Of a DNA stretch of 64,000 bases, positions 15,405 to 31,464 are shown piece by piece. Every line of letters starts with the position of its first letter. The stretch's first letter is position 1. Origin of the DNA: Fibrobacteria bacterium (GTDB lineage Bacteria > Fibrobacterota > Fibrobacteria > UBA11236). The notes below the pieces were generated by a model that was not told where the DNA came from, ran no database searches, and worked only from the letters and a program-made list of their open reading frames with translations. The stretch covers positions 9,272-73,271 of the forward strand of contig JBJHDK010000004.1 in assembly GCA_050486505.1 (NCBI GenBank), given 5' to 3'. The position numbers were made by a program, and so were the translations under genes.

Positions 15405-16223
15405 CTACTCGTCGTCGAAAACCGCCGGATCGTAGTGCCCGAGCGAAAAGAATTTTTTCTGGTCGGGCATCTCGCGAAAGCTGGCGCGGAACTCCTTCGG
15501 GGTCATCTTCTTGTACTTCGCGAACTGCTTGGTAAAGAAGCTGTGATCATAGAAGCCGGCCTCCACGGCAATATCCGCAATGGGCTTGCTCGTGCCAACC
15601 AACAGGCGACACGCCACATTCAACCGAACCATGGCCAGGTAGCGCCCGGGCGTCACCTGGAACTCGCGCTTGAAACGTCGTGTGAAACGTGAAAGGCTGA
15701 GCCCCGCCAACTCCGCGAGTTCTTCGGTGCGCAGCGGTTTGGCATAATGCGCCATGATATGCCTGACAACGGGCTCCAAGGTGCGGTAGGGGTGCAAGTC
15801 CGAATCCGCTGAACGCAAATCCTGCGTGATTCCGATCAGGCCGGCGGCATTGCCGTGCCTCCCCCTGAGGGGGATTTTTGTGGTCTGATACCAGTCCACC
15901 ATGCCGTCCGCGGTGGGAATGATCTCGGGTTTGTTGATTTGCGGCACACCCGTGCGCATGACCTCGGCATCATCGTGACGGTATGCCTCCGCCTGCAACT
16001 TCCAGAAGAAATCGTAATCCGTCTTGCCGACGATTTCTTCCGGGCCGTTGAGCCCCATTTTTTCCCAATGGTTGCGGTTCGACATGATGAACCGGCTCTG
16101 CGAGTCCTTGATGAAGATGTGGATGTTGCTGGGGAAATAGTTGAGCAACTTTTCGATCAACTCATCCTCGGGGAGTTCCCCCAGAAATGCGCGACGGAAC
16201 TCCTGATGGTCTGCACGTGTCAT
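15405..16223 (-). CDS. PAS-domain AraC-family transcriptional regulator (copy 2)
   Basis: PAS-like IFIKD..RFIMSN..GKTDYDFF..TKIPLR. AraC HTH LAELAGLS..F.R.FK and IAVEAGFYDHSFFTKQF. Confidence 0.9.
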   Translation of the reverse strand: MTRADHQEFRRAFLGELPEDELIEKLLNYFPSNIHIFIKDSQSRFIMSNRNHWEKMGLNGPEEIVGKTDYDFFWKLQAEAYRHDDAEVMRTGVPQINKPEIIPTADGMVDWYQTTKIPLRGRHGNAAGLIGITQDLRSADSDLHPYRTLEPVVRHIMAHYAKPLRTEELAELAGLSLSRFTRRFKREFQVTPGRYLAMVRLNVACRLLVGTSKPIADIAVEAGFYDHSFFTKQFAKYKKMTPKEFRASFREMPDQKKFFSLGHYDPAVFDDE

Positions 16224-17095
16224 GGGGTTGCCTTTCTCCGCGACGGAGTCCCGCGGACACCGGCCGATAGTTCGGCGCTTTCCCTGGCCGAACTCCGCGG
16301 CGTCAGATCTCCGAGCGGGAAAAATTTCTTGCGGTCGGGAAGGTCGCGAAACCGGATGCGAAACTCCTTGGGCGTGAGGCCCTTGTACTTCAGGAACTGT
16401 TTGGTGAAAAAACTGTGGTCGTAAAAGCCCGCCTTCAGTGCGACTTCAGAAATCGGCGAAGTGGTGTCAAGCAGCAGCCTGCATGCTGCATTCAGTCTGA
16501 CCATGGAAAGGTAGCGGCCCGGTGTCACCCCGAACTCCTGCTTGAAGCGACGGATCAGGTAGCCAGGGCTCAACCCGGCAACATCGGCCATTTCTTCGAG
16601 CCGGAGCGGCTTCGCGTAGTTCGTCATGATGTGGCGAACCACGGGTTCAAGGGTGCGGTAGGCCGACAACGCCGAATCCGCGGAGCGCAGGTCGCGGATG
16701 ATGCCCACAAGACCCTCGATCCCTCCATCCTTGCCGCGCAGGGGGATTTTGGTCGTCTGGTACCAATCCACCATGCCGTCCGCGGTGGGAATGATCTCGG
16801 GCTTGTTGATTTGCGGAGTCCCGGTCCGAAGAACCTCGCCATCGTCATGGCGGTAGGCTTCTGCCTGCAATGACCAAAAAAAATCATAGTCGGTCTTGCC
16901 GATAATCTGCTCCCCGCCCTCCAGGCCCATCTTTGTCCAGAAGCTGCGATTCGCCATCATGAAGCGGCCTTGCGCATCCTTGACGAATACATCGACATTA
17001 TCAGGAAAATGCTCCATGATTCTCTCGGTGATCTCGTTCTCGCGAAGCCTGTCGAGAAACGCGTGCCGAAGATCCTCCTCGCGACCAAGCGCCAT
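16220..17095 (-). CDS. PAS-domain AraC-family transcriptional regulator (copy 1)
   Basis: Same architecture as copy 2. Start MALGREE follows a GGAGG SD, and the gene overlaps copy 2 by ATGA. Confidence 0.9.
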   Translation of the reverse strand: MALGREEDLRHAFLDRLRENEITERIMEHFPDNVDVFVKDAQGRFMMANRSFWTKMGLEGGEQIIGKTDYDFFWSLQAEAYRHDDGEVLRTGTPQINKPEIIPTADGMVDWYQTTKIPLRGKDGGIEGLVGIIRDLRSADSALSAYRTLEPVVRHIMTNYAKPLRLEEMADVAGLSPGYLIRRFKQEFGVTPGRYLSMVRLNAACRLLLDTTSPISEVALKAGFYDHSFFTKQFLKYKGLTPKEFRIRFRDLPDRKKFFPLGDLTPRSSARESAELSAGVRGTPSRRKATP

Positions 17096-20196: not shown

Positions 20197-20654
20197 ACAT
20201 CCTCGAAGGCAATCTCAACGCGAACGGAAAATCCTTCGGGATCGTCGTGTCCCGATTCAACACCCTTGTCACGCAAGAACTGCTCAAGGGTGCGGTCGAC
20301 TGCCTCGTCCGCCACGGGGCCCGGGAGAAGGATATCACGGTGGCCTGGGTTCCCGGAGCCGGCGAGATCCCGCAAGTGCTCAGGCGTTTCGCCGCATCGG
20401 GCAAGTTCGACGCGGTCATCGCGTTGGGTTGTGTGATTCGCGGCGCCACGCCTCACTTCGACCAGGTCGTGCAGACCGCCGTGAAGGGGTTCGGTGGCGT
20501 CGCGGACGTCGGCGTCCCCGCCACCTTCGGGGTTCTCACCACCGAGAACCTGGAACAGGCGCTGGAACGGGCAGGCTCCAAGGCCGGGAACAAGGGCTGG
20601 GATGCCGCACTGGCGGCCATCGAACTGACCTCGCTTTGGAGCAAGCTGCCGTGA
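20193..20654 (+). CDS. ribH: 6,7-dimethyl-8-ribityllumazine synthase
   Basis: [35 protein letters not shown] and GNKGWDAA. Confidence 0.95.
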
Positions 20655-21085
20655 TCTCGCGCCGCAAGGGCAGAGAATTCGCCATGCAGGCGCTGTATGC
20701 GTCCGAAGTCGGGGCAGAGACCCTCGACAAGGCTGCGGAAACCCTCATGCAGGACGATCCCGTTTCTCCCGACATGCGCGACTACGGCATGCGATTGTGC
20801 CGCGTCGTGCGCACCCGCGCCGACGAGATCGACGCTCTCATCGCAGCCTGCGCCGAACGTTGGGATGTCGCGCGCATCGCCGTGGTGGACCGCATCATTC
20901 TACGCATCTCCGTGGCAGAACTCATGACCGAGCCCGATGTTCCCGCGAAGGTCTGCATCAACGAGGCGGTGGAAATCGCCAGAAAGTTCTCAACCGAAAA
21001 CAGCAGCCGCTTCGTGAACGGCGTCCTTGACGCCGTTTCCCGCAAGCTGGCTGATCTTCACAACGAACCCGCTCCGAAAAAGTAA
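20651..21085 (+). CDS. nusB: Transcription antitermination factor NusB
   Basis: GTG start overlaps the ribH stop. Motifs [30 protein letters not shown] and FVNGVLD. Confidence 0.94.
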
Positions 21086-21094
21086 GGAAGACGC

Positions 21095-23899
21095 ATGCTC
21101 AACGAAAAAAAGTTGGACGTCATTCTGGCGCTGACTGTATTCTTCGCCGCATTCTTCGTGTACCTGTCCACGATGGCACCCACAGTCTCCTGGTGGGACA
21201 CCGGGGAATGGATCGCCTCGTCGTATGTCCTGGGAAACCCCCACCCCCCGGGGAATCCCCTTTTCACCTTGTTGGGACGCGCCTTCGTCGTCGCCATGCC
21301 CATCTGGGAGAAAGCGGCGCGGATCAACTTCATCTCCGTGCTTACGATGGCCTTGAGCGCGATGGTCGCCTTCCTGTTCATCCTGAAGGCGATGCGCCTC
21401 ATTTTCAACAAGGGAGGACTCAACCGCTTCGCCCTGTATTCGGGCGCCGTCATCGGTGGTTTCCTGGTCGCATTCTCCGACACGGTCTGGTTCAGCGCGG
21501 TGGAAACCGCCGCGTACAGCCCGGCGATGCTGATCGTGATGCTCACTGGCCTCCTGAGCCTGCATTGGTACGCGCGGCGCGGCACCCCGGCCGCTGACCG
21601 GCTTCTCCTTCTCATCGCCTATATCGGCTTTCTGGGCGTCGGCGTGCACATCTTCGCGTTCATCACCATCCCCGTGATCGCGCTGTTCGTGCTCCTCGAC
21701 AAGGAGTCCCGGTCCAACATCCCGCTCATCCTTGCGGGCGTGCTGCTGCTGTCCGTCATTTACGACATCGGCAACTTCGTCTTCTACGCCGCCGCCTCCC
21801 TCGCATTCTGCGTCACGGGGTATCTGGTTGCCCGTGCTCCCGAATGGCGTCGGCGCTGGTCGCTCGCGGGCTGGCTGAGCCTTGCCGCCATTCTCGGGTT
21901 CTCCACCTACATCTATGCCCCGGTCCGTTCCCACACCAATGTGTTGATCGACGAGGGCGCCCCCCGCACATGGCCCCTGCTGAAGGAGTACCTGGAACGC
22001 AAGCAGTACGGTTCCGAATCGATGCTGCGGCGAGCCTTCCATCGCCGCGCCCAGATCGGCCACCAGATCCTGATCCACCCCCACATGGGCTACGGGGGCT
22101 ATATGCTCTCGCAATACTTCCCCTGGAAGGTTGGCGATCGCAGCGAGGAAACCGTGGTCACCACCCGGAACCTCCTCGGCAAGGAGCTTGTCTTCCCGGA
22201 GCTGTACCGCTCGCTGCAGGGGCGAACCGGAACCCAAATCGGGCTTTTCCTGCTTCTGCAGATCCCCTTCATCTGGGGAGTCCTGCTCGCTTACCGCCGC
22301 AACCGAAAAATCGGCGCGTTCATCGGCGCGCTGTACGTCGCGACCAGTTACGGCCTCATCTTCTACCTCAACTTCGCGGATGGCACGCGCATGGAACTGC
22401 GCGACTACCAGTGGTGGAAGAGCACGGGATTCGACCCGAACCAGCAACCTCCCCCGGTTCACATGGAGGTGCGCGAACGCGATTACTTCTTCACGCCCGG
22501 GTTCATGTACATGGGCATCCTGTTCGGCGTTTCGGCTGTCTTCCTGCTGAACTGGATCGCCTCCCGGCGCAGGTTGCTGCTGCGCCCGGCCGGCTTTGCC
22601 CTGATCGGCCTGGCCTTCGCTCTTCCCGTGTGGTCGAACTACCGTGAGCACGACCGCTCCCGCGACTTCGTGCCTTACGACTACGCCTACAACCTGCTGA
22701 ACTCCTGCCGTCCGAACTCGATCCTGTTCACCAACGGAGACAACGACACGTTCCCGCTCTGGTTCATGCAGCAGGTCGAGGGGATCCGTACCGACGTGCG
22801 CGTCGTGAACCTCTCGCTGGTGAACACCACCTGGTACATGCACCAGCTTTACGAGCACGAGCCGAAACTGAAAATCGGATTCACGCCCGAGGAGATCGAG
22901 AACCTCCGTCCGCAGCCGTGGCGCTTCCGCGGTCCGGTCGAGATCACGATTCCCGGAACGCAGATCCGCTACCAACTGGACCCCCTCCCTTACCTTCGCG
23001 TTCAGGACATCATGGTGCTGCACATCGTGCAAAACAACTTCCCCGAGCGCCCTGTTCACTTCGCCGTCACCATCGGCGGCAACAACGCGATGGGCCTTGA
23101 GAGATTCACGGTCATGGAAGGCATGGTGTATACCCTCGTCGAAGAGCCGCGCGATCGAGAAATCGACGTCGTCGCCACCGCCCGCCTCGTGGACTCTGTC
23201 TACCAGTTCCGCGGTCTCGGCGATCCCCGCGTGCACATCGACAAGACCACCGAGGGCTTGCTGACCAACTACTCCGCGACCAACTTCAGGCTGGCGGGGT
23301 GGGCACAGGACAGCCTCGAGAAAGTGATGCGGGAGCTGGAGCGCCTGCGCGGCCGCGATGGTCTGGGACGTGCCGAAACGGAGCGTCTTGCCGTCCTCGA
23401 AGAATCCCGCGAAGAAATGCTGGCCTTCGCCGAGCGCTACCTCGGGCTGAATGCGCGCATCCTCCCGGGTGAATGGCGCGTCCACTACTACCTGGGCCAG
23501 CTTTACCATCTCGCGGGCGAGCCCGGGAAGGCGGAATCGGCCTTCCGCGACGGCATGCGGACCCGCGGACCCGCGGCGAAGATTTTCGCCCTCAACCTGA
23601 TGCAGCTCTTCATGGATGCCGGGCGAAGCGACGAGGCCAAGGCCGTGCTTTCCGAAATGACGGTGCGTTTTCCCGAGGATCTTGAAGTCGCATACCGTCT
23701 CGCGGAGATGTACCAGCAGGAAGGCGACTTCACCCGCGCGCGCGACATTCTTTCGAGATGGCTGCGGGCGAATCCCAATCACGAGTACGCGCGGCCCATC
23801 GAACAGCAGCTCCGCCAGCTGGAGTCGATGCCGCAGCGGGAGCTCCCGCCTCCGTCGCACGAGATCGAGGCTGAGATTCCCGGCCTCCTTCCGGAGTAA
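21095..23899 (+). CDS. DUF2723 / TMEM260-like multi-pass GT-C glycosyltransferase with C-terminal TPRs
   Basis: PTVSWWDTGEWIA..HPPGNPL, RERDYFF, NGDNDTFPLW and VVNLSL. Many TM segments and a TPR-like tail. Confidence 0.85.
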   Translation: MLNEKKLDVILALTVFFAAFFVYLSTMAPTVSWWDTGEWIASSYVLGNPHPPGNPLFTLLGRAFVVAMPIWEKAARINFISVLTMALSAMVAFLFILKAMRLIFNKGGLNRFALYSGAVIGGFLVAFSDTVWFSAVETAAYSPAMLIVMLTGLLSLHWYARRGTPAADRLLLLIAYIGFLGVGVHIFAFITIPVIALFVLLDKESRSNIPLILAGVLLLSVIYDIGNFVFYAAASLAFCVTGYLVARAPEWRRRWSLAGWLSLAAILGFSTYIYAPVRSHTNVLIDEGAPRTWPLLKEYLERKQYGSESMLRRAFHRRAQIGHQILIHPHMGYGGYMLSQYFPWKVGDRSEETVVTTRNLLGKELVFPELYRSLQGRTGTQIGLFLLLQIPFIWGVLLAYRRNRKIGAFIGALYVATSYGLIFYLNFADGTRMELRDYQWWKSTGFDPNQQPPPVHMEVRERDYFFTPGFMYMGILFGVSAVFLLNWIASRRRLLLRPAGFALIGLAFALPVWSNYREHDRSRDFVPYDYAYNLLNSCRPNSILFTNGDNDTFPLWFMQQVEGIRTDVRVVNLSLVNTTWYMHQLYEHEPKLKIGFTPEEIENLRPQPWRFRGPVEITIPGTQIRYQLDPLPYLRVQDIMVLHIVQNNFPERPVHFAVTIGGNNAMGLERFTVMEGMVYTLVEEPRDREIDVVATARLVDSVYQFRGLGDPRVHIDKTTEGLLTNYSATNFRLAGWAQDSLEKVMRELERLRGRDGLGRAETERLAVLEESREEMLAFAERYLGLNARILPGEWRVHYYLGQLYHLAGEPGKAESAFRDGMRTRGPAAKIFALNLMQLFMDAGRSDEAKAVLSEMTVRFPEDLEVAYRLAEMYQQEGDFTRARDILSRWLRANPNHEYARPIEQQLRQLESMPQRELPPPSHEIEAEIPGLLPE

Positions 23900-25038
23900 T
23901 GCCCGTGCCGGAGGGGGCAACGCGTCCGCGCGTGCTGATCGTCAACTGGAGGGATATCCGCAACCCCGCGGCGGGCGGGGCGGAGGTTCACCTCCACGAG
24001 ACGGCGCGCAGGCTCGTGCACAACGGCTTTGACGTCGTGCAATATGCGCACGCCTTCCCCGGCGGATCCGCCGAAGACAATGTCGACGGCGTGGAAATCC
24101 ACCGGAAGGGGAACGCGTTCCTCTTCAATTACACCGCCCTGCTCAATCTGCGCCGATGGGTGCGCCGCCACCGCATCGATGTCGTGATCGACGACTCGAA
24201 CAAGGTTTGTTTCCTGCTCCCGTTGGTTTCGCCGGTTCCGGTCGTGGCGCGCTTCCATCATCTTTTCGGACGTTCCATTTTCCGGGAAGCCGGGTTTTTC
24301 CCCGCCCTGTACGTCTATCTCTTCGAGTGCATGATCGGCCCCGTGTATCGACGCACCCGCATCCTGACGGTATCGCCCAGTACACGCGCCGAATTGGAAG
24401 CCAAGGGCCTGCGGCGCATCACGATCGCGCTCAACGGCGTCGACCGCTCCGTGTACCGCGTGATTCCCGGAGCGGAGAAGATCCCTTTTCGCATCGTCCA
24501 CATTGGGCGCATCAAGCGCTACAAGAAGCTCGACACCCTTCTTCACGCGCTGGTGCATGTGCGGCACGAGTTCCCGCAGGCGCATCTGGTGGTCGGAGGC
24601 GGGGGGAACGACCTCCCCGCGCTGCGCAGGCTTGCGCTCTCGCTCGGAATCGGGGATGCGGTCGATTTCCGGGGGTTCGTTTCCGAGGAAGAAAAGGTGC
24701 GGCTTTACAACGAGGCCCAGGTGTTCGTGAACGCCTCCCTGAAGGAGGGCTGGGGCCTGACGTCCGTCGAAGCCAACGCCTGCGGGACACCCGTGGTCGC
24801 CACCGACGCGCCCGGTTTGCGCGACAGCGTGCGCCACGACGTGACCGGCCTGCTCGTGCCTCCCGATTCCCCGGACAAGTTCGCTGCCGCAATCGTCAGC
24901 CTCCTCCGCGACCCGGAGCGGCTCTCGCGCATGCGGGAAGCGGCCATGGAGTGGGCTGCCGCGCACGATTGGGACCGCGCCGCCGGGGTTACGCGCGACG
25001 TCCTGCTTGAGGCGGTTTCCGGGAGATCCGCGCCATGA
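23899..25038 (+). CDS. Glycosyltransferase family 4
   Basis: NWRD..P.AGGAEV, HIGRIKRYKK and EGWGLTSVEANACGTPVV (EX7E). Confidence 0.9.
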   Translation: MPVPEGATRPRVLIVNWRDIRNPAAGGAEVHLHETARRLVHNGFDVVQYAHAFPGGSAEDNVDGVEIHRKGNAFLFNYTALLNLRRWVRRHRIDVVIDDSNKVCFLLPLVSPVPVVARFHHLFGRSIFREAGFFPALYVYLFECMIGPVYRRTRILTVSPSTRAELEAKGLRRITIALNGVDRSVYRVIPGAEKIPFRIVHIGRIKRYKKLDTLLHALVHVRHEFPQAHLVVGGGGNDLPALRRLALSLGIGDAVDFRGFVSEEEKVRLYNEAQVFVNASLKEGWGLTSVEANACGTPVVATDAPGLRDSVRHDVTGLLVPPDSPDKFAAAIVSLLRDPERLSRMREAAMEWAAAHDWDRAAGVTRDVLLEAVSGRSAP

Positions 25039-26078
25039 CCACCGAAACCCCGAAGGAAGGCATGAAGCCGGAAGGGCGCCCCCCCGTCCCGGGCCGCTTC
25101 TGGTTCTGGACACGCGTCCTTGCCGTCATCGGCATCCTGTGGTGGGTGGTCGAGCGCAACGGCGGCGCACGCATCGCCCACGCGCTTCTCTCTGCTGATC
25201 CGCGTTGGGTCGCGGCGGCGGCGGCGGTCTTCTTTCTGTCGATCGTCCTCGCTGCCTGGCAATGGAGCCTGCTTCTGCGCATCCAGGGCATCCGTTTCGG
25301 ATTCAAGGCATGTTTCAGGTCTTATTACTCGGGAATGTTCCTCAACAATTTTCTTCCCGGCACCGTCGGGGGAGACGCCCTGCGCGTTTGGGACGTACAT
25401 CGCCACGAAACTTCGCTGGGACGCGCCGCCGCTTCGACCCTGCTTGACCGCCTGATGGGTTTCAGTGCGCTGTCGTTCTTCTCCCTGATCGCGCTCGCCA
25501 TCGAATTTCATCGGCAAGATCTCCCGCAGGGGTTGCTGGTGCACTTGTTGCAGGCGGTTGGGGCCGTTGCCGTCGCCTTTCTGTTTCTTCTTTTGCTGCT
25601 GCTCAGCAGGAGATTTTCGGGGGGACTCCACGCGATCATCCGTGCCCTCGGGTTGCAGCGACTCGGCAACATCCACGCCAAGGTGCAAGATGCACTGATG
25701 GCCTACAAGGCTCGCTGGGGAAGCATCGGCATCGTCTTCCTGGTCGCCTGCACCGTCCAGCTGCTGCGAATCTCCGTGCACGCCTTTTGCGCCATGGCGC
25801 TCGGGCTTTCGCTCGCACCGGTGTTTTTCTTTTCGTTCATCCCCTTGATCGCGCTGACTGCCGTGCTCCCCTTGAACGTGGGCGGTTGGGGCGTCCCGCA
25901 GGGGCTCGGCGCCTACCTTTACTCCCTGCCCGGAATCCTGGCCGTGTCGACGCTCGACCCGCGCGCCGCTGCGGCGGCGCTCGCCTTCCTTCCCACCGCC
26001 ATCGGCATGGTGGTGATGCTCGGCGGGGGTATTTACCTTGTCTTCCGTCCCTCACAACCATCCCGGAAGGCCATGTGA
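25035..26078 (+). CDS. Lysylphosphatidylglycerol-synthase TM-region (flippase-like) membrane protein
   Basis: NNFLPGTVGGDALR, LDRLMG and LPLNVGGWG. Highly hydrophobic. Confidence 0.8.
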   Translation: MTTETPKEGMKPEGRPPVPGRFWFWTRVLAVIGILWWVVERNGGARIAHALLSADPRWVAAAAAVFFLSIVLAAWQWSLLLRIQGIRFGFKACFRSYYSGMFLNNFLPGTVGGDALRVWDVHRHETSLGRAAASTLLDRLMGFSALSFFSLIALAIEFHRQDLPQGLLVHLLQAVGAVAVAFLFLLLLLLSRRFSGGLHAIIRALGLQRLGNIHAKVQDALMAYKARWGSIGIVFLVACTVQLLRISVHAFCAMALGLSLAPVFFFSFIPLIALTAVLPLNVGGWGVPQGLGAYLYSLPGILAVSTLDPRAAAAALAFLPTAIGMVVMLGGGIYLVFRPSQPSRKAM

Positions 26079-27028
26079 CGCGACTCAGTCTTGTTCTTCC
26101 CGCCTTCAACGAAGCGGAGAGCCTCCCCATCCTCCTGGAGGAGATCCGCTCGGTGTGCGAATCGGAGGGCATCGCCTACGAAGCCATCATCGTCGACGAC
26201 GGCAGCACGGACGGCACCTTCGAGCGCGCCACCGAGGCCGCCTCCCGCGACTCGCGCGTCCATGCCGTGCGCTTCCGGCGCAACAGCGGCAAGGCGGCGG
26301 CGCTTGCCGAAGGGTTCCGGCGCGCGCAGGGCGAGTACGTCATCACCATGGACGCCGACCTGCAGGACAACCCGTCGGAAATTCCGGAACTGATCCGAAT
26401 GCTGGAAGCCGGCTCCGACATGGTTTCAGGCTGGAAGAAAGTACGCCACGATCCCTGGCACAAGACTTTGCCCTCGAAGCTGTTCAACGCGGTCACGGCC
26501 ATGGCTTCGGGCCTGCCCCTGCACGACTTCAATTGCGGGCTCAAGGCCTATCGCCGCGAGGTGGTGGAAAGCATCGAGCTCTACGGCGAGTTTCACCGGT
26601 ACATCCCCGTGCTTGCACACTGGGACGGGTTCCGTGTCGAGGAGAAAGTCGTCGAGCATCGGGCACGGCGTTACGGAAACTCCAAATACGGTTGGGCGCG
26701 CCTGAGCAACGGATTGTTCGACCTGATCACCCTGCTCTTTCTTCACCGCTACACGCGCCGCCCGCTGCACCTGTTCGGCTTCGTCGGCATGTTGTTCACC
26801 GCGCTGGGGGTGGCGATTCTCGCCGGTTTCGGCATCAGCTGGCTCGCAACCGGAGCGCTGCACGTGCGGCCCCTGATGCTCGGCGGCGTCGCCTTCATGC
26901 TGGTGGGCGTTCAATTCGTTTCGCTCGGACTGCTGGGGGAGCTGGTGAACCAGCGCTTCGCCGCGTCATCCCCCCCGCCCCCCGTCGCCCGCGAGACCCC
27001 TGGAGCGCCGCCGGCCCGGTCCCGATGA
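26075..27028 (+). CDS. GT2 polyprenol-phosphate glycosyltransferase (ArnC/GtrB-like) with two C-terminal TM helices
   Basis: LPAFNEAESL, VDDGSTD, RRNSGKAAAL, MDADLQDNP, HDFNCGLK and HRYIP. Confidence 0.88.
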   Translation: MTRLSLVLPAFNEAESLPILLEEIRSVCESEGIAYEAIIVDDGSTDGTFERATEAASRDSRVHAVRFRRNSGKAAALAEGFRRAQGEYVITMDADLQDNPSEIPELIRMLEAGSDMVSGWKKVRHDPWHKTLPSKLFNAVTAMASGLPLHDFNCGLKAYRREVVESIELYGEFHRYIPVLAHWDGFRVEEKVVEHRARRYGNSKYGWARLSNGLFDLITLLFLHRYTRRPLHLFGFVGMLFTALGVAILAGFGISWLATGALHVRPLMLGGVAFMLVGVQFVSLGLLGELVNQRFAASSPPPPVARETPGAPPARSR

Positions 27029-27867
27029 AAATCTTGGTCGCGGGCTGCAACGGCCTGCTCGGCCAGAACCTGCTCCGTTGCGCTCCGGCCGGGACGGAAC
27101 TTCACGGACTGGCCCGGCATCCCGCGGCCCGGCTTCCGGGTCACCTGGCCTCCTTCCATTCCCGCGACATCACCGCCCCGGAAACATGGGACTTCGTTCG
27201 AGCGACGATCCGTCCCGAGCGGATCCTCAATGTCGCCGCGATCACCGATGTCGATGGCTGCGAACGTGCCCCTGTTGCATGTTCGCGCGTCAACCATGAC
27301 GCCGTGAGCCTGATGACCGGAACGGGAATCCCGGTCGTGCAGCTTTCAACCGATTACGTGTTCGACGGAAGCTCCGGCCCCTACCGGGAGGAGGATGCAA
27401 CGAATCCCCCCAATGCCTACGGCCGCATCAAGCTCGCCTCGGAGGCTCTTGCACTCGAGGGTTCTCCCGCCGGACTGGTGGTGCGCACCATGTGGGTTTG
27501 GGGCGAAGGAACGGGGACGAAGAAAAGCTTTCCGGCCTTTGTGGAGGAGACCTTGCGGGGTGGCGGCGTCGTGCGCGCCGTGACGGACCAGACCGGAAAC
27601 CCGACGTGCGCGGAGGGCCTGGCGCGGGCGATCTGGGCCTTGGTGACGGGGGGGTGCTCCGGCGTCTATCACGTTGCGGGGAGCACTCTGCTGAGCCGCT
27701 TCGACTGGGCCCGGCACATCGCGGAATCGCGAGGGCTCGATGCATCCCGGATCGTTGCCGTAACCACGGCGGAGCTCGGACTCGCCGCACCACGGCCCTT
27801 GCGGTCGGGACTGGTCAGCGACAAGCTGTTCCGCGACACGGGGACCAGGTTGCAGGGCATCGAATAG
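27025..27867 (+). CDS. RmlD-like NDP-4-keto-sugar reductase (extended SDR)
   Basis: GCNGLLG, STDYVFDG, YGRIK (YxxxK) and APRP. Confidence 0.85.
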   Translation: MKILVAGCNGLLGQNLLRCAPAGTELHGLARHPAARLPGHLASFHSRDITAPETWDFVRATIRPERILNVAAITDVDGCERAPVACSRVNHDAVSLMTGTGIPVVQLSTDYVFDGSSGPYREEDATNPPNAYGRIKLASEALALEGSPAGLVVRTMWVWGEGTGTKKSFPAFVEETLRGGGVVRAVTDQTGNPTCAEGLARAIWALVTGGCSGVYHVAGSTLLSRFDWARHIAESRGLDASRIVAVTTAELGLAAPRPLRSGLVSDKLFRDTGTRLQGIE

Positions 27868-27966
27868 TCCCGTCGCCCCCAGTGCCCCCTGGCCGTCGCG
27901 GAATCGCGGACGATCCCCATCTTTCGCCTGCTATATTAGGCCCTCACGTCATCAGACCGGACTTCC

Positions 27967-28674
27967 ATGCCCAGAACCCTCATCATCATCCCGACCTACA
28001 ACGAGATCGAGAATCTCCCGCTGATGATTCCCGCTCTGGAGGCGCTTGACCTCGGACTCGAGGTTCTCGTCGTCGACGATGGTTCGCCCGACGGCACCGG
28101 GGCCTGGGTCAGGGAGCAACAGGCCTCGAAGCCGCACCTGCACCTGATCGAGCGCTCCGGCAAACAGGGGCTCGGATCCGCGTACGTCGCGGGGTTCAAA
28201 TATGCGCTGGAGCGCGATTATGAACTCATCTTTGAAATGGACGCGGATTTCTCGCACGACCCGGCCTACATCAAGGATTTTCTCGCTGCGATCCACGACG
28301 CGGACCTCGTCATCGGCAGCCGCTACATCAACGGCGTCAATGTCGTGAACTGGCCCATGAGCCGCCTGCTTCTGAGCTACTTCGCCAACATGTACGCACG
28401 GCTGGTGACCGGGCTTCCGGTCCGCGACGCCACGGGCGGATTCAAGTGCTTCCGCGCCGACGCCCTGCGCAAGCTCGACCTCGACCGCATCAGCTCGGGC
28501 GGCTACTCTTTCCAGATCGAAGTGAACTACAAGCTGTGGAAGAAGGGTTGCCGCATCCGCGAAATCCCCATCATCTTCAAGGACCGCACGTTGGGTGCCT
28601 CCAAAATGTCGGGGAAAATCATCAAGGAAGCCCTGTTCCTGCTGGTGAAGCTGCGCCTTGGCGGAGGAAAGTGA
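27967..28674 (+). CDS. Polyprenol monophosphomannose synthase (Ppm1/DPM1-like GT2)
   Basis: IIPTYNE.EN, VVDDGSPDGT, GLGSAY, MDADFSHDP, DATGGFKC, GYSFQIE and F.DR..GASKM. Confidence 0.88.
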   Translation: MPRTLIIIPTYNEIENLPLMIPALEALDLGLEVLVVDDGSPDGTGAWVREQQASKPHLHLIERSGKQGLGSAYVAGFKYALERDYELIFEMDADFSHDPAYIKDFLAAIHDADLVIGSRYINGVNVVNWPMSRLLLSYFANMYARLVTGLPVRDATGGFKCFRADALRKLDLDRISSGGYSFQIEVNYKLWKKGCRIREIPIIFKDRTLGASKMSGKIIKEALFLLVKLRLGGGK

Positions 28675-30413
28675 GGACGGGGGACCAACCCTTCGACTCC
28701 ACTTCGGTAAACTCAGTGCGATACCCCCAGGACAAGAGCCAGGATGCGGGAGACGAGGAGGGACAAGGAGCACCCCCAACCTCTTCCCCCCTGCCTACTG
28801 CCTACCCAAGGGGCGTCTCTGTCATCATCGTCTCCTACAACGTCCGCGAATTTCTTGATGCCTGCCTGCAGAGCATCCGCCACGCTGCGGCGGGTTTCGA
28901 CGGAAAAATCGAGGTCATCGTGTTCGACAACGACTCGCACGATGGCACTGTATCGCTGCTGCGGCCACGTTGGCCCGATGTCACCTGGATCGCTTCGGAT
29001 CGCAACCTCGGCTTCGGATCAGGGTGCAACCGCGGTGCCGCAGTGGCCACGCAAGACCTGCTGCTGTTTCTCAACCCCGACACCTTGGTTCGCGAAGACA
29101 CCTTCCGGGTCATGCGCGACTTTTTCTCGGGACGCGGCGACGTGGGGGCGGCCGGCTGCAAGATCGTGAACCGCGACGGCAGCCTGCAGGCCGCAGCGAA
29201 GCGCAGTTTCCCCTCCCCGCGCGTAGCGGCCTACAAATTCATGGGCCTCGGCAGTCTTTTCCCGAAAAGCCGTGTTTTCGGCCGCTACAACCTGACCTAT
29301 CTCGACGAGAACGAGACTCATGAGGTCGACGCGATCTCGGGTTCCTTCATGTGCATGCGCGCCGAAGTGTTCCGCAAGGCGGGAGGCTTTGACGAGGACT
29401 TTTTCATGTACGGGGAAGATCTGGACCTCTGCTTCCGGATCAAATTGTTGGGGCTGCGCAACTACTACCACCCGGCCACTCAGGTGGTCCACTTCAAGGG
29501 CGAGAGCGCGAAAAGCCGTCCCTTCCGGTCCTTCCTGTATTTCCACGAGGCCATGATCCTCTTCGCCCGCAAGCATCTTGAACTGCACGCGCTGCCGGGA
29601 TTCCTGCTGAATGCCGGCATCATCGTCCTGGCCGCGGCCAATTTCATCTCTTCGCGCTTCCGCAAGTGGAGCCGCTGGCTCGCCGATCTCGTCGTGGTCA
29701 ACGGAGTGCTCGCTGCGACAGCCTACGCCTACCACAACATCCTCGACATCCGCCACGTCGCGACAGAGTACCCCGGCATGTATCTGCTGTCGCATTTACT
29801 CGTTTCCCTCGCGGTATTGCTTCCCTTCGCCTACATCGGCGAGTACGGCCGTCGCGTCGCACCTCCGCGCGCGGTTCTGTTCGCAGCCGCAGGCGGATTT
29901 CTTGCCTTCTTTTCCTTGAGCTACTTCCTCCACGAGCACGCCTATTCAAGGGTCGTCTTCGGAGTCACGGGTCTCCTGAGCGTCGCCCTGCTTTCGGGAT
30001 GGCGCTGGGTTCGGTCGCACGGAGGCAAGCTTTTCCGAAAGCTCATGGACGGTTCCCGGCGCGTCGCCATTCTCGGAACCGGGGCGCGGGCCCTCGCGCT
30101 CGCGGAACTCATCCACTCGGATCGCGTGGAGGGTTATGAATGCGTCGGCTTCATCCATTTTCCAAAGGGCCCGGCGCCTCCCGAGGTGCGGGCAAGCGTG
30201 ATCGGCGAAGTCGATTCCCTGCCGGGGTTGTCGAGAAAACTCGACCTCGCCGGAGTCATTGTTGCATTGGAGGGCGACGCATACCCCGCGGCACTCGAAA
30301 TCCTCGCGCAACAGGGCGCGCGAGCACTTGAGGTCAAGGTGCTGCTGGGGCCTCCGGAACCGGGGAAATTCAGCCTGATCGACCTTAATTTCGCGGATTC
30401 CCCGAAACAGTGA
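28671..30413 (+). CDS. GT2 glycosyltransferase fused to a membrane domain and a Rossmann-like domain
   Basis: VIIVSYNV, DNDSHDG, NLGFG, LNPDT, FFMYGEDLD and HFKGES, then TM helices and VAILGTG. Exact start uncertain. Confidence 0.85.
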   Translation: MRTGDQPFDSTSVNSVRYPQDKSQDAGDEEGQGAPPTSSPLPTAYPRGVSVIIVSYNVREFLDACLQSIRHAAAGFDGKIEVIVFDNDSHDGTVSLLRPRWPDVTWIASDRNLGFGSGCNRGAAVATQDLLLFLNPDTLVREDTFRVMRDFFSGRGDVGAAGCKIVNRDGSLQAAAKRSFPSPRVAAYKFMGLGSLFPKSRVFGRYNLTYLDENETHEVDAISGSFMCMRAEVFRKAGGFDEDFFMYGEDLDLCFRIKLLGLRNYYHPATQVVHFKGESAKSRPFRSFLYFHEAMILFARKHLELHALPGFLLNAGIIVLAAANFISSRFRKWSRWLADLVVVNGVLAATAYAYHNILDIRHVATEYPGMYLLSHLLVSLAVLLPFAYIGEYGRRVAPPRAVLFAAAGGFLAFFSLSYFLHEHAYSRVVFGVTGLLSVALLSGWRWVRSHGGKLFRKLMDGSRRVAILGTGARALALAELIHSDRVEGYECVGFIHFPKGPAPPEVRASVIGEVDSLPGLSRKLDLAGVIVALEGDAYPAALEILAQQGARALEVKVLLGPPEPGKFSLIDLNFADSPKQ

Positions 30414-30507: not shown

Positions 30508-31464
30508 ATGCCCGTACCCAAGGGGCCCCATCTCGAGTTCGAACAGCCGGTGGTCGAGCTGGCGATGAAAATCGAGGATCTCCTCAAGTCAGGTGAAGTG
30601 ACAGGGTCCGATGTCAAGGCTCTCCAGGTCAAAAAGGAAGCCCTCCAGAAGAAAATCGCGGCGAAACTCTCGCCCTGGAACCGGATCGAACTGGCCCGGA
30701 GAGCGGGCCGCCCATTCACCCTGGATTACGTTCACAGCATCTTCGCCGACTTCGTCGAACTGCATGGCGATCGCCGCTTCGGGGATGACCCGGCCATGGT
30801 TTGCGGTCTCGCGCGCCTCGGTGAGCAAAGTGTCATGATCATCGGCCAGCAAAAGGGCCGCGACACCAAGGAAAGCATCCGTCGCAACTTCGGCATGGCT
30901 CACCCCGAGGGATATCGCAAGGCCCTGCGCTGCATGAAGCTCGCGGAGAAATTCCGCATCCCGGTGATATCATTCATCGACACTCCCGGGGCCTATCCCG
31001 GCCTCGGGGCGGAAGAACGAGGGCAGGGTGAGGCCATCGCCCTCAATCTCATGGAAATGGCCGTGCTTCGCGTCCCCATCATCGCCGTGGTCATCGGGGA
31101 AGGAGCCAGCGGGGGTGCACTCGGGATCGGCGTCGGTGACCGCCTGCTCATGCTTGAGAACGCATGGTACGGCGTCATCTCTCCGGAATCGTGCAGCGCC
31201 ATCCTTTGGGGCGACAGCAGCAAGAAACAGGAACTGAGCGGCACCATGAAAATCACTGCTGGGGACCTCAAGAACCTCAACGTGATCGATCGCATCATCC
31301 CCGAGCCCTTGGGCGGAGCCCACTGGGATCCCGATGCGATGTGCGGCACCTTGAAGCAAGTGCTCACGGAAGAGCTCTCTCTCCTGCGTGATGCCGACAT
31401 CGAAGCTCTTGTTGAAAAGCGCGGAGCGAAATATGCCGCCATCGCCCAGTTCGCGGAGAAATAG
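30508..31464 (+). CDS. accA: Acetyl-CoA carboxylase carboxyltransferase alpha subunit
   Basis: LHGDRRFGDD, RNFGMAHPEGYRKA, DTPGAYPG and GEGASGGAL. Confidence 0.96.
   Translation: MPVPKGPHLEFEQPVVELAMKIEDLLKSGEVTGSDVKALQVKKEALQKKIAAKLSPWNRIELARRAGRPFTLDYVHSIFADFVELHGDRRFGDDPAMVCGLARLGEQSVMIIGQQKGRDTKESIRRNFGMAHPEGYRKALRCMKLAEKFRIPVISFIDTPGAYPGLGAEERGQGEAIALNLMEMAVLRVPIIAVVIGEGASGGALGIGVGDRLLMLENAWYGVISPESCSAILWGDSSKKQELSGTMKITAGDLKNLNVIDRIIPEPLGGAHWDPDAMCGTLKQVLTEELSLLRDADIEALVEKRGAKYAAIAQFAEK

Follow-up and report, generated by a model that had tools for sequence, protein, structure and literature searches.

The 64,000-nt stretch of a Fibrobacteria bacterium genome analysed here (assembly GCA_050486505.1, contig JBJHDK010000004.1, positions 9,272 to 73,271; hereafter the window) carries at 21095..30413 a conserved cluster of seven genes that is a candidate for part of the protein-glycosylation machinery of Bacteroides-like bacteria. 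The seven open reading frames (ORFs), all on the plus strand, were confirmed where a sequence-only reading of the window had placed them, and ORF calls together with Pfam, NCBIfam and PDB searches agree with the families assigned there. The run starts 9 nt after nusB (20651..21085, plus strand; PF01029, TIGR01951), which closes a ribD-ribE-ribBA-ribH-nusB run and represents a conserved upstream anchor. The first gene encodes a TMEM260-like (DUF2723, GT117) GT-C transferase of 934 aa (21095..23899; PF11028) with a membrane module, a Rossmann-like palm and a TPR tail. It is followed by genes for a GT4 glycosyltransferase predicted to be cytoplasmic (23899..25038; PF00534, 1.5e-41), an LPG_synthase_TM flippase-like membrane protein (25035..26078; PF03706, 2.5e-37; TIGR00374 above cut-off), a GtrB/ArnC/PgfS-like polyprenyl-phosphate sugar synthase (26075..27028; ArnC 1.6e-54, GtrB sll0501 2.7e-31), an RmlD-like dTDP-4-dehydrorhamnose reductase (27025..27867; PF04321, 2.4e-56; TIGR01214), a DPM1/Ppm1-like synthase (27967..28674) and a GT2 fusion whose N-terminal part, with membrane and Rossmann regions, is of the WcaJ type (28716..30413; PF00535, PF13727), for which a start at 28716 is likelier than one at 28446. 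The gaps between the seven genes are, in order, -1, -4, -4, -4, +99 and +41 nt, with a further 94 nt to the downstream anchor accA (30508..31464, plus strand; TIGR00513 above cut-off), so that the earlier description of the run as mostly overlapping holds for the first five genes (overlaps of 1-4 nt) and not for the last two. Family searches with the seven proteins returned no match to wzx, wzy, WaaL or ABC families, as the sequence-only reading had observed; elsewhere the host genome encodes several flippases of the Wzx type along with Wzz, a Wza-like protein and one member of the Wzy/WaaL family.

The 934-aa protein matches PF11028 at 4.4e-37 (128 bits against a cut-off of 24.2), carries the motifs WWDTGE, HPPG and NGDNDTFP and ends in C-terminal TPRs. 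Compared with human TMEM260 (9rql), it scored 4e-17 by phmmer and 6.9e-31 by profile search; the phmmer alignment pairs D35, H50 and D549 with human D52, H67 and D441, the profile alignment pairs R462 with R355, and human G440 is kept as well. The catalytic base of the human enzyme is D441, and its donor residues are D52, H67, R264, Y267 and R355 (bioRxiv 2026.03.17.711096; papers are cited here and below for the accessible parts of their text). The catalytic base of the bacterial protein would thus be D549, and not the Asp of WDTGE, which had been proposed for comparison with the catalytic loop and would instead help to bind the donor. All 94 aligned homologs (an alignment that drew on 93 of 120 listed homologs) share D35, H50, R462 and D549, and the same four residues are kept in three Bacteroidota DUF2723 proteins. 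R302 and Y305, also invariant, are spaced like the donor-loading R264/Y267 of the human protein, a correspondence of spacing only, the alignments missing that human stretch. Human E466, a contact of the residue preceding the acceptor (bioRxiv 2026.03.17.711096), is replaced by an invariant Ser574, and R460, N547, N550 and D551 are further invariant positions; one may speculate that Ser574 in place of E466 could suit an Asp at -1. On sequence grounds, the protein is confirmed as a member of the GT117 family with an intact active site, and it most likely works like TMEM260. However, four patterns for the IPT-domain sequon of TMEM260, taken from a fibrocystin preprint, had 0 matches in the 1956 called ORFs of the host, and PF01833 (IPT/TIG) was not found in the host genome and occurred in 1 of 21 genomes scanned, indicating that the run enzyme is not an IPT-specific TMEM260.

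The predicted structure (pLDDT 93, pTM 0.90) has the GT-C fold expected from the sequence-only reading: GT-C enzymes fill ranks 1-9 of the structural alignment search (Z 16.6-21.1), headed by ArnT (Z 21.1, rmsd 5.0, 447 aligned), Pmt2 (20.7) and AglB (19.6), and the Foldseek matches include PglB and STT3. Among the seven Pfam matches of the protein (E<=0.001), none is to a PMT (GT39), STT3/PglB or PglL/WaaL domain. That the closest fold, although tied with Pmt2, is an enzyme modifying lipid A raises the possibility that the run is a GtrB/flippase/GT-C-type system decorating a glycolipid or envelope polymer, with the glycosylation motif signal described below due to another GT-C enzyme, YfhO, alone. 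ArnC is also the closest match of the GtrB-like gene, the DUF2723 genes of Bacteroidales adjoin those for a polysaccharide deacetylase, and the TMEM260-like gene is dispensable in one relative (G025, see below) in which the motif persists. We nonetheless consider such a non-protein acceptor improbable: the homology to human TMEM260 reaches the peptide-binding palm and the catalytic base is retained, the TPR tail suits protein clients, and 9rql was absent from the rows of both fold searches, which makes ArnT only the nearest entry listed.

The remaining enzymes would supply and handle lipid-linked sugars. The best PDB match of the DPM1-like synthase is dolichol monophosphate mannose synthase (5mlz, 2.4e-31), so that the mannose-type donor synthase of the sequence-only reading stands and polyprenyl-phosphate-mannose is its likely product. 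The GtrB-like synthase scores below the equivalog cut-offs of both ArnC and PgfS. The RmlD-like protein reaches 196 bits with TIGR01214, below its cut-off of 224, and its gene is the sole strong RmlD match in the host genome (runner-up, 3e-16); rmlA and rmlC were found elsewhere in the genome by family searches, and the host also has gmd and a GDP-mannose pyrophosphorylase (ManC)-like gene, the latter below its cut-off. The GT2 fusion may be a rhamnosyltransferase, a candidate function for which TIGR01556 gave just 8.4e-9, far below its cut-off; of 137 genomes, 133 hold a match to the fusion at E<=1e-45. The LPG_synthase_TM protein is a candidate for flipping the polyprenyl-phosphate sugar. 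Leloir glycosyltransferases, GT4 and GT2 included, use nucleotide sugars in the cytoplasm, and since neither the GT4 (which also lacks a transmembrane (TM) helix) nor the GT2s of the run have a signal peptide by our heuristic, sugar addition by these enzymes is expected on the lipid, ahead of flipping, and not, as had been proposed, as an extension of the glycan after its transfer.

PF11028 was found in 40 of 41 relatives and in only 1 of 14 control genomes, that of Bacteroides thetaiotaomicron, and a profile of the transferase matched 224 of 226 genomes of the phylum at E<=1.1e-36 (this tally and those of 192/194, 4/30 and 133/137 each take in one unpublished genome, G220, on which no conclusion depends by itself), a distribution that would fit an oligosaccharyltransferase (OTase) function. 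The two exceptions are G025, with a TPR match only, and G049, with no match; the latter assembly is 93% complete in ~200 contigs and its congeners carry the transferase gene away from nusB, making it uninformative as a case of natural loss. Comparison of 42 loci, comprising 2 duplicates, 8 paralogs without operon genes and 32 nusB-linked loci, showed that the TMEM260-like gene comes immediately after nusB in every locus of the last group. Eighteen of these 32 contain all seven genes in the same order, indicating that the run is not a chance grouping, whereas 6 are cut short or lack a member. The other eight belong to two families, one (f4, 4 loci) keeping TMEM260-GT4-flippase-GtrB and the other (f5, 4 loci) TMEM260-GtrB-DPM1-GT2. 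Among 20 hand-picked loci of another class, nusB is followed by a TMEM260-like gene in at least 8 and by a YfhO paralog in at least 6, often with a GT4, flippase or GtrB close by; small membrane ORFs of these loci we take to be GtrA-like. Moreover, RmlD-DPM1 follows YfhO in 4 of 30 YfhO loci, with the GT2 fusion next on the same contigs. Given the f4 and f5 subsets and the arrangement behind YfhO, the run consists of two modules: module A, with the transferase, GT4, flippase and GtrB, and module B, with RmlD (assigned by its linkage elsewhere), DPM1 and the GT2 fusion.

A promoter-like box, TGCTATATT (27929..27937, plus strand), lies ~30 nt 5' of the DPM1-like gene and is a possible internal promoter of the run. 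The DPM1-like gene has a comparable box in front of it in 12 of 24 loci, and 73 of the 111 genome-wide occurrences of the TATATT box sit <=200 nt upstream of an ORF; a sigma-70 scan found no site within the seven-gene run. The modular build bears on the strictest form of the original proposal, namely a complete, self-contained pathway in which mannose is placed onto protein and then extended by the GT4 and GT2s of the run. Every enzyme type needed is indeed adjacent, here and in 18 of 32 relatives. Yet the glycosyltransferases have no export signals and depend on nucleotide sugars; in other lineages the run comes apart into its two modules, and here the promoter-like box lies close to their junction; and YfhO, a second GT-C, is near-universal (192/194 genomes) and, like further flippases, encoded elsewhere. 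The run is therefore not a complete pathway, and we regard the self-contained version as highly implausible.

Extra PF11028 paralogs, mostly shorter, up to four in tandem and away from the operon, occur in four genomes (L067, L068, L069 and L041, in G005, G008, G006 and G001, respectively), and one locus (L216:11427-15428, G085) encodes a 1333-aa TMEM260-like protein with added membrane segments directly after nusB.

To assess the likely acceptor, we turned to the host proteome (1956 self-called ORFs, with heuristic localisation and signal-peptide classes) and the D-S/T-hydrophobic motif of Bacteroidota O-glycosylation. D[ST][AILVMT] occurs 731 times in 276 predicted exported proteins against 281 expected (observed/expected (O/E) 2.60), compared with 740 against 590 in 927 cytoplasmic proteins (O/E 1.25); the 639 membrane or unassigned proteins, tallied separately, gave O/E of 1.21 and 1.42. 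Control triplets were not enriched (E[ST]x 0.93, N[ST]x 0.81, reversed motif 0.95), the maximum over 200 shuffles was 326 motifs, and 89 of the 107 proteins with an expectation >=1 surpass the expected count. Five of the six top X[ST]Y triplets are DxL, DxV, DxI, DxT and DxA, and the enriched third residues L, I, V, T, A and S agree with the order in the Bacteroidota glycoproteome (PMC12871550). The exported proteins of the host thus bear the Bacteroidota D-S/T-hydrophobic O-glycosylation signature, an enrichment already remarked for Fibrobacterota in the same paper, which describes the Bacteroidota core as a hexose (mannose, Man) plus a deoxyhexose (rhamnose, Rha), names the OTase, ligase and core flippase as undiscovered, and proposes looking for O-mannosylation homologs. 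A relative, G032, likewise has 72 motifs against 21 expected.

The gene families of the run recur in Porphyromonas gingivalis, where the comparison is one of families by annotation. Its DUF2723 protein PGN_0192 and YfhO/PMT-like protein PGN_1968 are both glycoproteins (PMC8729774) and both appear in a transposon-sequencing list of 463 essential genes, which also has an LPG-synthase-like gene, a DPM1-type GT2, a COG1216 GT2 and GT4s (PMC3547785). A Prevotella DUF2723 protein is likewise glycosylated (PMC10897501). The enzyme of the run has a D-S-V motif in its own periplasmic part (window 23192-23200, residues 700-702), with D700 nearly invariant; the P. gingivalis and Prevotella proteins are glycosylated at other sites. 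From the motif enrichment in exported proteins and the essentiality of the same families in P. gingivalis, protein O-glycosylation is the likely job of the run, so that the protein acceptor of the sequence-only reading gains support while the role of the transferase as initiating enzyme is contested. Rather than a stand-alone new system, the run is more likely part of the known Bacteroidota-type general O-glycosylation (PMC12871550).

The contender for the initiating role is the YfhO-family GT-C of the host, a 792-aa protein encoded outside the window (G000:C14:25545-27923). Its model (pLDDT 90) had AftD as top Foldseek match, and VIA-align returned Pmt2 (Z 17.5), AftA (16.8), Pmt4 (16.8), STT3B (16.6) and AftD (16.5); protein- and glycan-acceptor GT-Cs tie, so the fold does not distinguish the acceptor of YfhO. 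In the surrounding locus (G000:C14:24730-30760, L151) YfhO is flanked by two methyltransferases, which could O-methylate the glycan, a second LPG-synthase-TM flippase and a GT4. Two other host proteins are possible further GT-C enzymes: a PMT_2-like membrane protein truncated where its contig ends (G000:C6:29-1546, L149) and a 506-aa multi-TM protein without a Pfam match that adjoins gmd (G000:C83:3205-4725, L155).

Several observations weigh against the TMEM260-like enzyme as the protein glycosyltransferase. A preprint predicts YfhO as the Bacteroidota OTase (bioRxiv 10.64898/2026.07.27.740950), although it calls YfhO absent from P. gingivalis, where PGN_1968 is nonetheless annotated as YfhO/PMT-like and listed as essential. 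In the 4 of 30 YfhO loci mentioned above, the RmlD-DPM1 pair stands behind YfhO and not behind the TMEM260-like gene. In B. thetaiotaomicron, a set of 378 likely essential genes takes in BT0251 (DPM1), the YfhO ortholog BT2796 and the flippase-like BT4044, whereas BT3247, which we infer to be the DUF2723 gene from the gene order in B. finegoldii and the anchors BT3248, BT3249 and BT3253, was not found among the rows listed from nine supplementary files (PMC8121099); a literature search on BT3247 and the PGN/PG tags turned up only unrelated papers. Human TMEM260 adds one mannose, which stays unextended (bioRxiv 2026.03.17.711096), and the glycan, donor and acceptor of every bacterial family member are predicted. 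Finally, genome G180 has the transferase gene yet only 25 motifs against 19 expected in its 14 proteins, a small sample; family f5 gave 25 against 19 in 14-16 proteins, and in the f5 case the periplasmic part of 14 long homologs, which is not an independent sample, held 61 motifs against 17.

A further challenge came from G025, a relative of the same order with a single-contig genome of 1.6 Mb that is 98% complete. Family and profile searches found no TMEM260-like gene in it, a genome search found no GT2 fusion, and none of 40 stretches covering about half of the genome held a TMEM260 remnant. G025 keeps YfhO (41%), DPM1 (63%), GtrB (58%) and diverged GT4 and flippase genes, its GT4, flippase and RmlD being relocated and diverged, not lost. 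Nevertheless, about half of the genome yielded 127 motifs against 50 in 44 exported proteins, and G025 proteins without a homolog in the host still show 84 against 30, so that this natural-loss test, planned as a negative control, came out against the simple model. A flippase gene of G025 is broken, suggesting that decay is under way and that the loss of the transferase may possibly be recent, with the motif a residue. At the corresponding place in this genome (G025:C1:1573531-1596744; L094, L095), nusB is followed by several large repeat-rich proteins and no TMEM260-like gene. Because G025 keeps YfhO and the motif without the TMEM260-like gene, and given the essentiality pattern of B. thetaiotaomicron, YfhO is a serious rival as initiating enzyme; our own tests favour YfhO as much as the TMEM260-like enzyme for the indispensable first step.

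One way to accommodate these data, which we hold as a tentative alternative, is that YfhO sets the Man(-Rha) core on D-S/T-hydrophobic sites with the DPM1 donor, while the TMEM260-like enzyme is a second-step ligase adding the next sugar or outer glycan in the periplasm from the module A donor, with D549 activating a sugar hydroxyl. Such a division would fit G025, where the motif and YfhO are kept and the TMEM260-like gene is gone, unless the broken flippase means that the losses are recent and the motif residual; G025 also retains GT4, flippase and GtrB without the enzyme they would serve. It would fit B. thetaiotaomicron too, in which the outer glycan can be deleted without loss of viability and a ligase, though postulated, has yet to be found (PMC12871550), and P. 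gingivalis, whose waaL and wzx mutants gave no shift of a reporter glycoprotein. Throughout the phylum, module A is accompanied by a donor synthase of its own, and in some families module B is found behind YfhO, but the YfhO paralog inside module A in the other class could use that same donor. The core uronic acid is beta-linked in solved Bacteroidota glycans, a linkage that would not result from an inverting GT-C using a lipid-monophosphate donor made by a GT2. In addition, the sole characterised family member acts on peptide Thr/Ser, and the tied fold matches of YfhO do not single out a protein acceptor. Two polysaccharide loci of the host with Wza-like, Wzz, Wzy/WaaL-family, Wzx or MurJ-type and GT genes (G000:C5:29783-40457, L148; G000:C1:53299-64093, L156) are possible sources of an outer glycan.

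Returning to the reading that we prefer, we estimate at about even the chance that a large part of the lipid-phosphate-linked front end of Bacteroidota-type general O-glycosylation is encoded in the run, and put at the same level the proposal that its TMEM260-like enzyme, probably beside YfhO, transfers mannose or Man-Rha from a lipid carrier to Ser/Thr of exported proteins. By homology, the DPM1-like enzyme would make polyprenyl-P-mannose at the cytoplasmic face. Less firmly, RmlD would supply dTDP-rhamnose, from which the GT2 fusion may complete a Man-Rha core, and in a second branch the GtrB-like enzyme and GT4 may make another lipid-linked sugar. The LPG-synthase-TM protein would flip the donor, to be bound by the TMEM260-like enzyme through D35, H50 and R462, a site located by alignment. 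An extended exported polypeptide would be held in the palm and TPR tail, and D549 would activate the Ser/Thr hydroxyl, with inversion yielding an alpha linkage, most likely at D-S/T-hydrophobic sites. The TMEM260-like enzyme would be one of two periplasmic GT-Cs, YfhO being the other and maybe the indispensable general one, and may therefore serve just part of the clients. Taken by role, that the TMEM260-like enzyme is the sole initiating enzyme appears unlikely, and that it is one of two initiating enzymes somewhat less so. Only slightly below even do we place the broader proposal that the operon gathers scattered, essential core genes of the system in Bacteroidota and Fibrobacterota, namely those for a lipid-monophosphate Man(-Rha) donor, an LPG-synthase-TM core flippase and a two-transferase arrangement of GT117 and YfhO; if true, a bacterial counterpart of the animal enzyme TMEM260 would read the three-residue D-S/T-hydrophobic sequon, the change of E466 to Ser making room for the Asp at -1.

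In major bacteria of the gut and mouth, many exported proteins are modified by the Bacteroidota system, whose transferase, ligase and core flippase have been called undiscovered (PMC12871550; bioRxiv 2026.07.27.740950). From the locus come a few candidate genes, identifiable by locus tag in species amenable to genetics, together with a catalytic residue as a target for mutation; it also frames a two-way comparison of DUF2723 and YfhO. The GT117 family, the Bacteroidota O-glycosylation system and the motif signal in Fibrobacterota are already known. For the bacterial branch of the family, PMC10214176 mentions, in its accessible text, merely 'distant homologs in bacteria' of TMEM260, and a literature search, most subscription journals being outside its reach, found no functional study of a bacterial GT117.

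Elsewhere in the window, two tandem regulators, PAS and AraC-type as judged by eye, lie on the minus strand upstream of ribD (15405-17095), and Rfam gave no match within the 64 kb.

Among known systems, human TMEM260 (GT117, PF11028; 9rql/9rqm/9rqn) shares with the run enzyme the family, the residues D52/H67/R355/G440/D441, the GT-C module, the Rossmann-like palm and the TPR tail, but the run enzyme is bacterial, neither the IPT sequon nor a TIG domain was found in its host, and E466 has become Ser. Bacteroidota general O-glycosylation has in common with it the motif in exported proteins, mannose- and rhamnose-type enzymes and the same families, essential in P. gingivalis; in contrast, the genes are clustered in the Fibrobacterota operon, whereas the Bacteroidales DUF2723 gene lies beside a deacetylase and queG. 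The YfhO-family enzyme is also a GT-C that is near-universal in the phylum and linked to a flippase or RmlD-DPM1, although it represents a separate family encoded outside the window. GtrA/GtrB/GT-C and ArnC/ArnT systems similarly combine a GtrB/ArnC-like synthase, a flippase and a GT-C, but the run has two donor synthases, LPG-synthase-TM in place of GtrA, and a GT117 with a peptide-binding hand. Finally, with respect to PglB/AglB/STT3, PglL and actinobacterial PMT, the GT-C fold is common to PglB, AglB, STT3, Pmt2/4 and the run enzyme, from which the latter differs by having no STT3, Wzy_C or PMT Pfam match and an identity of 8-13%.

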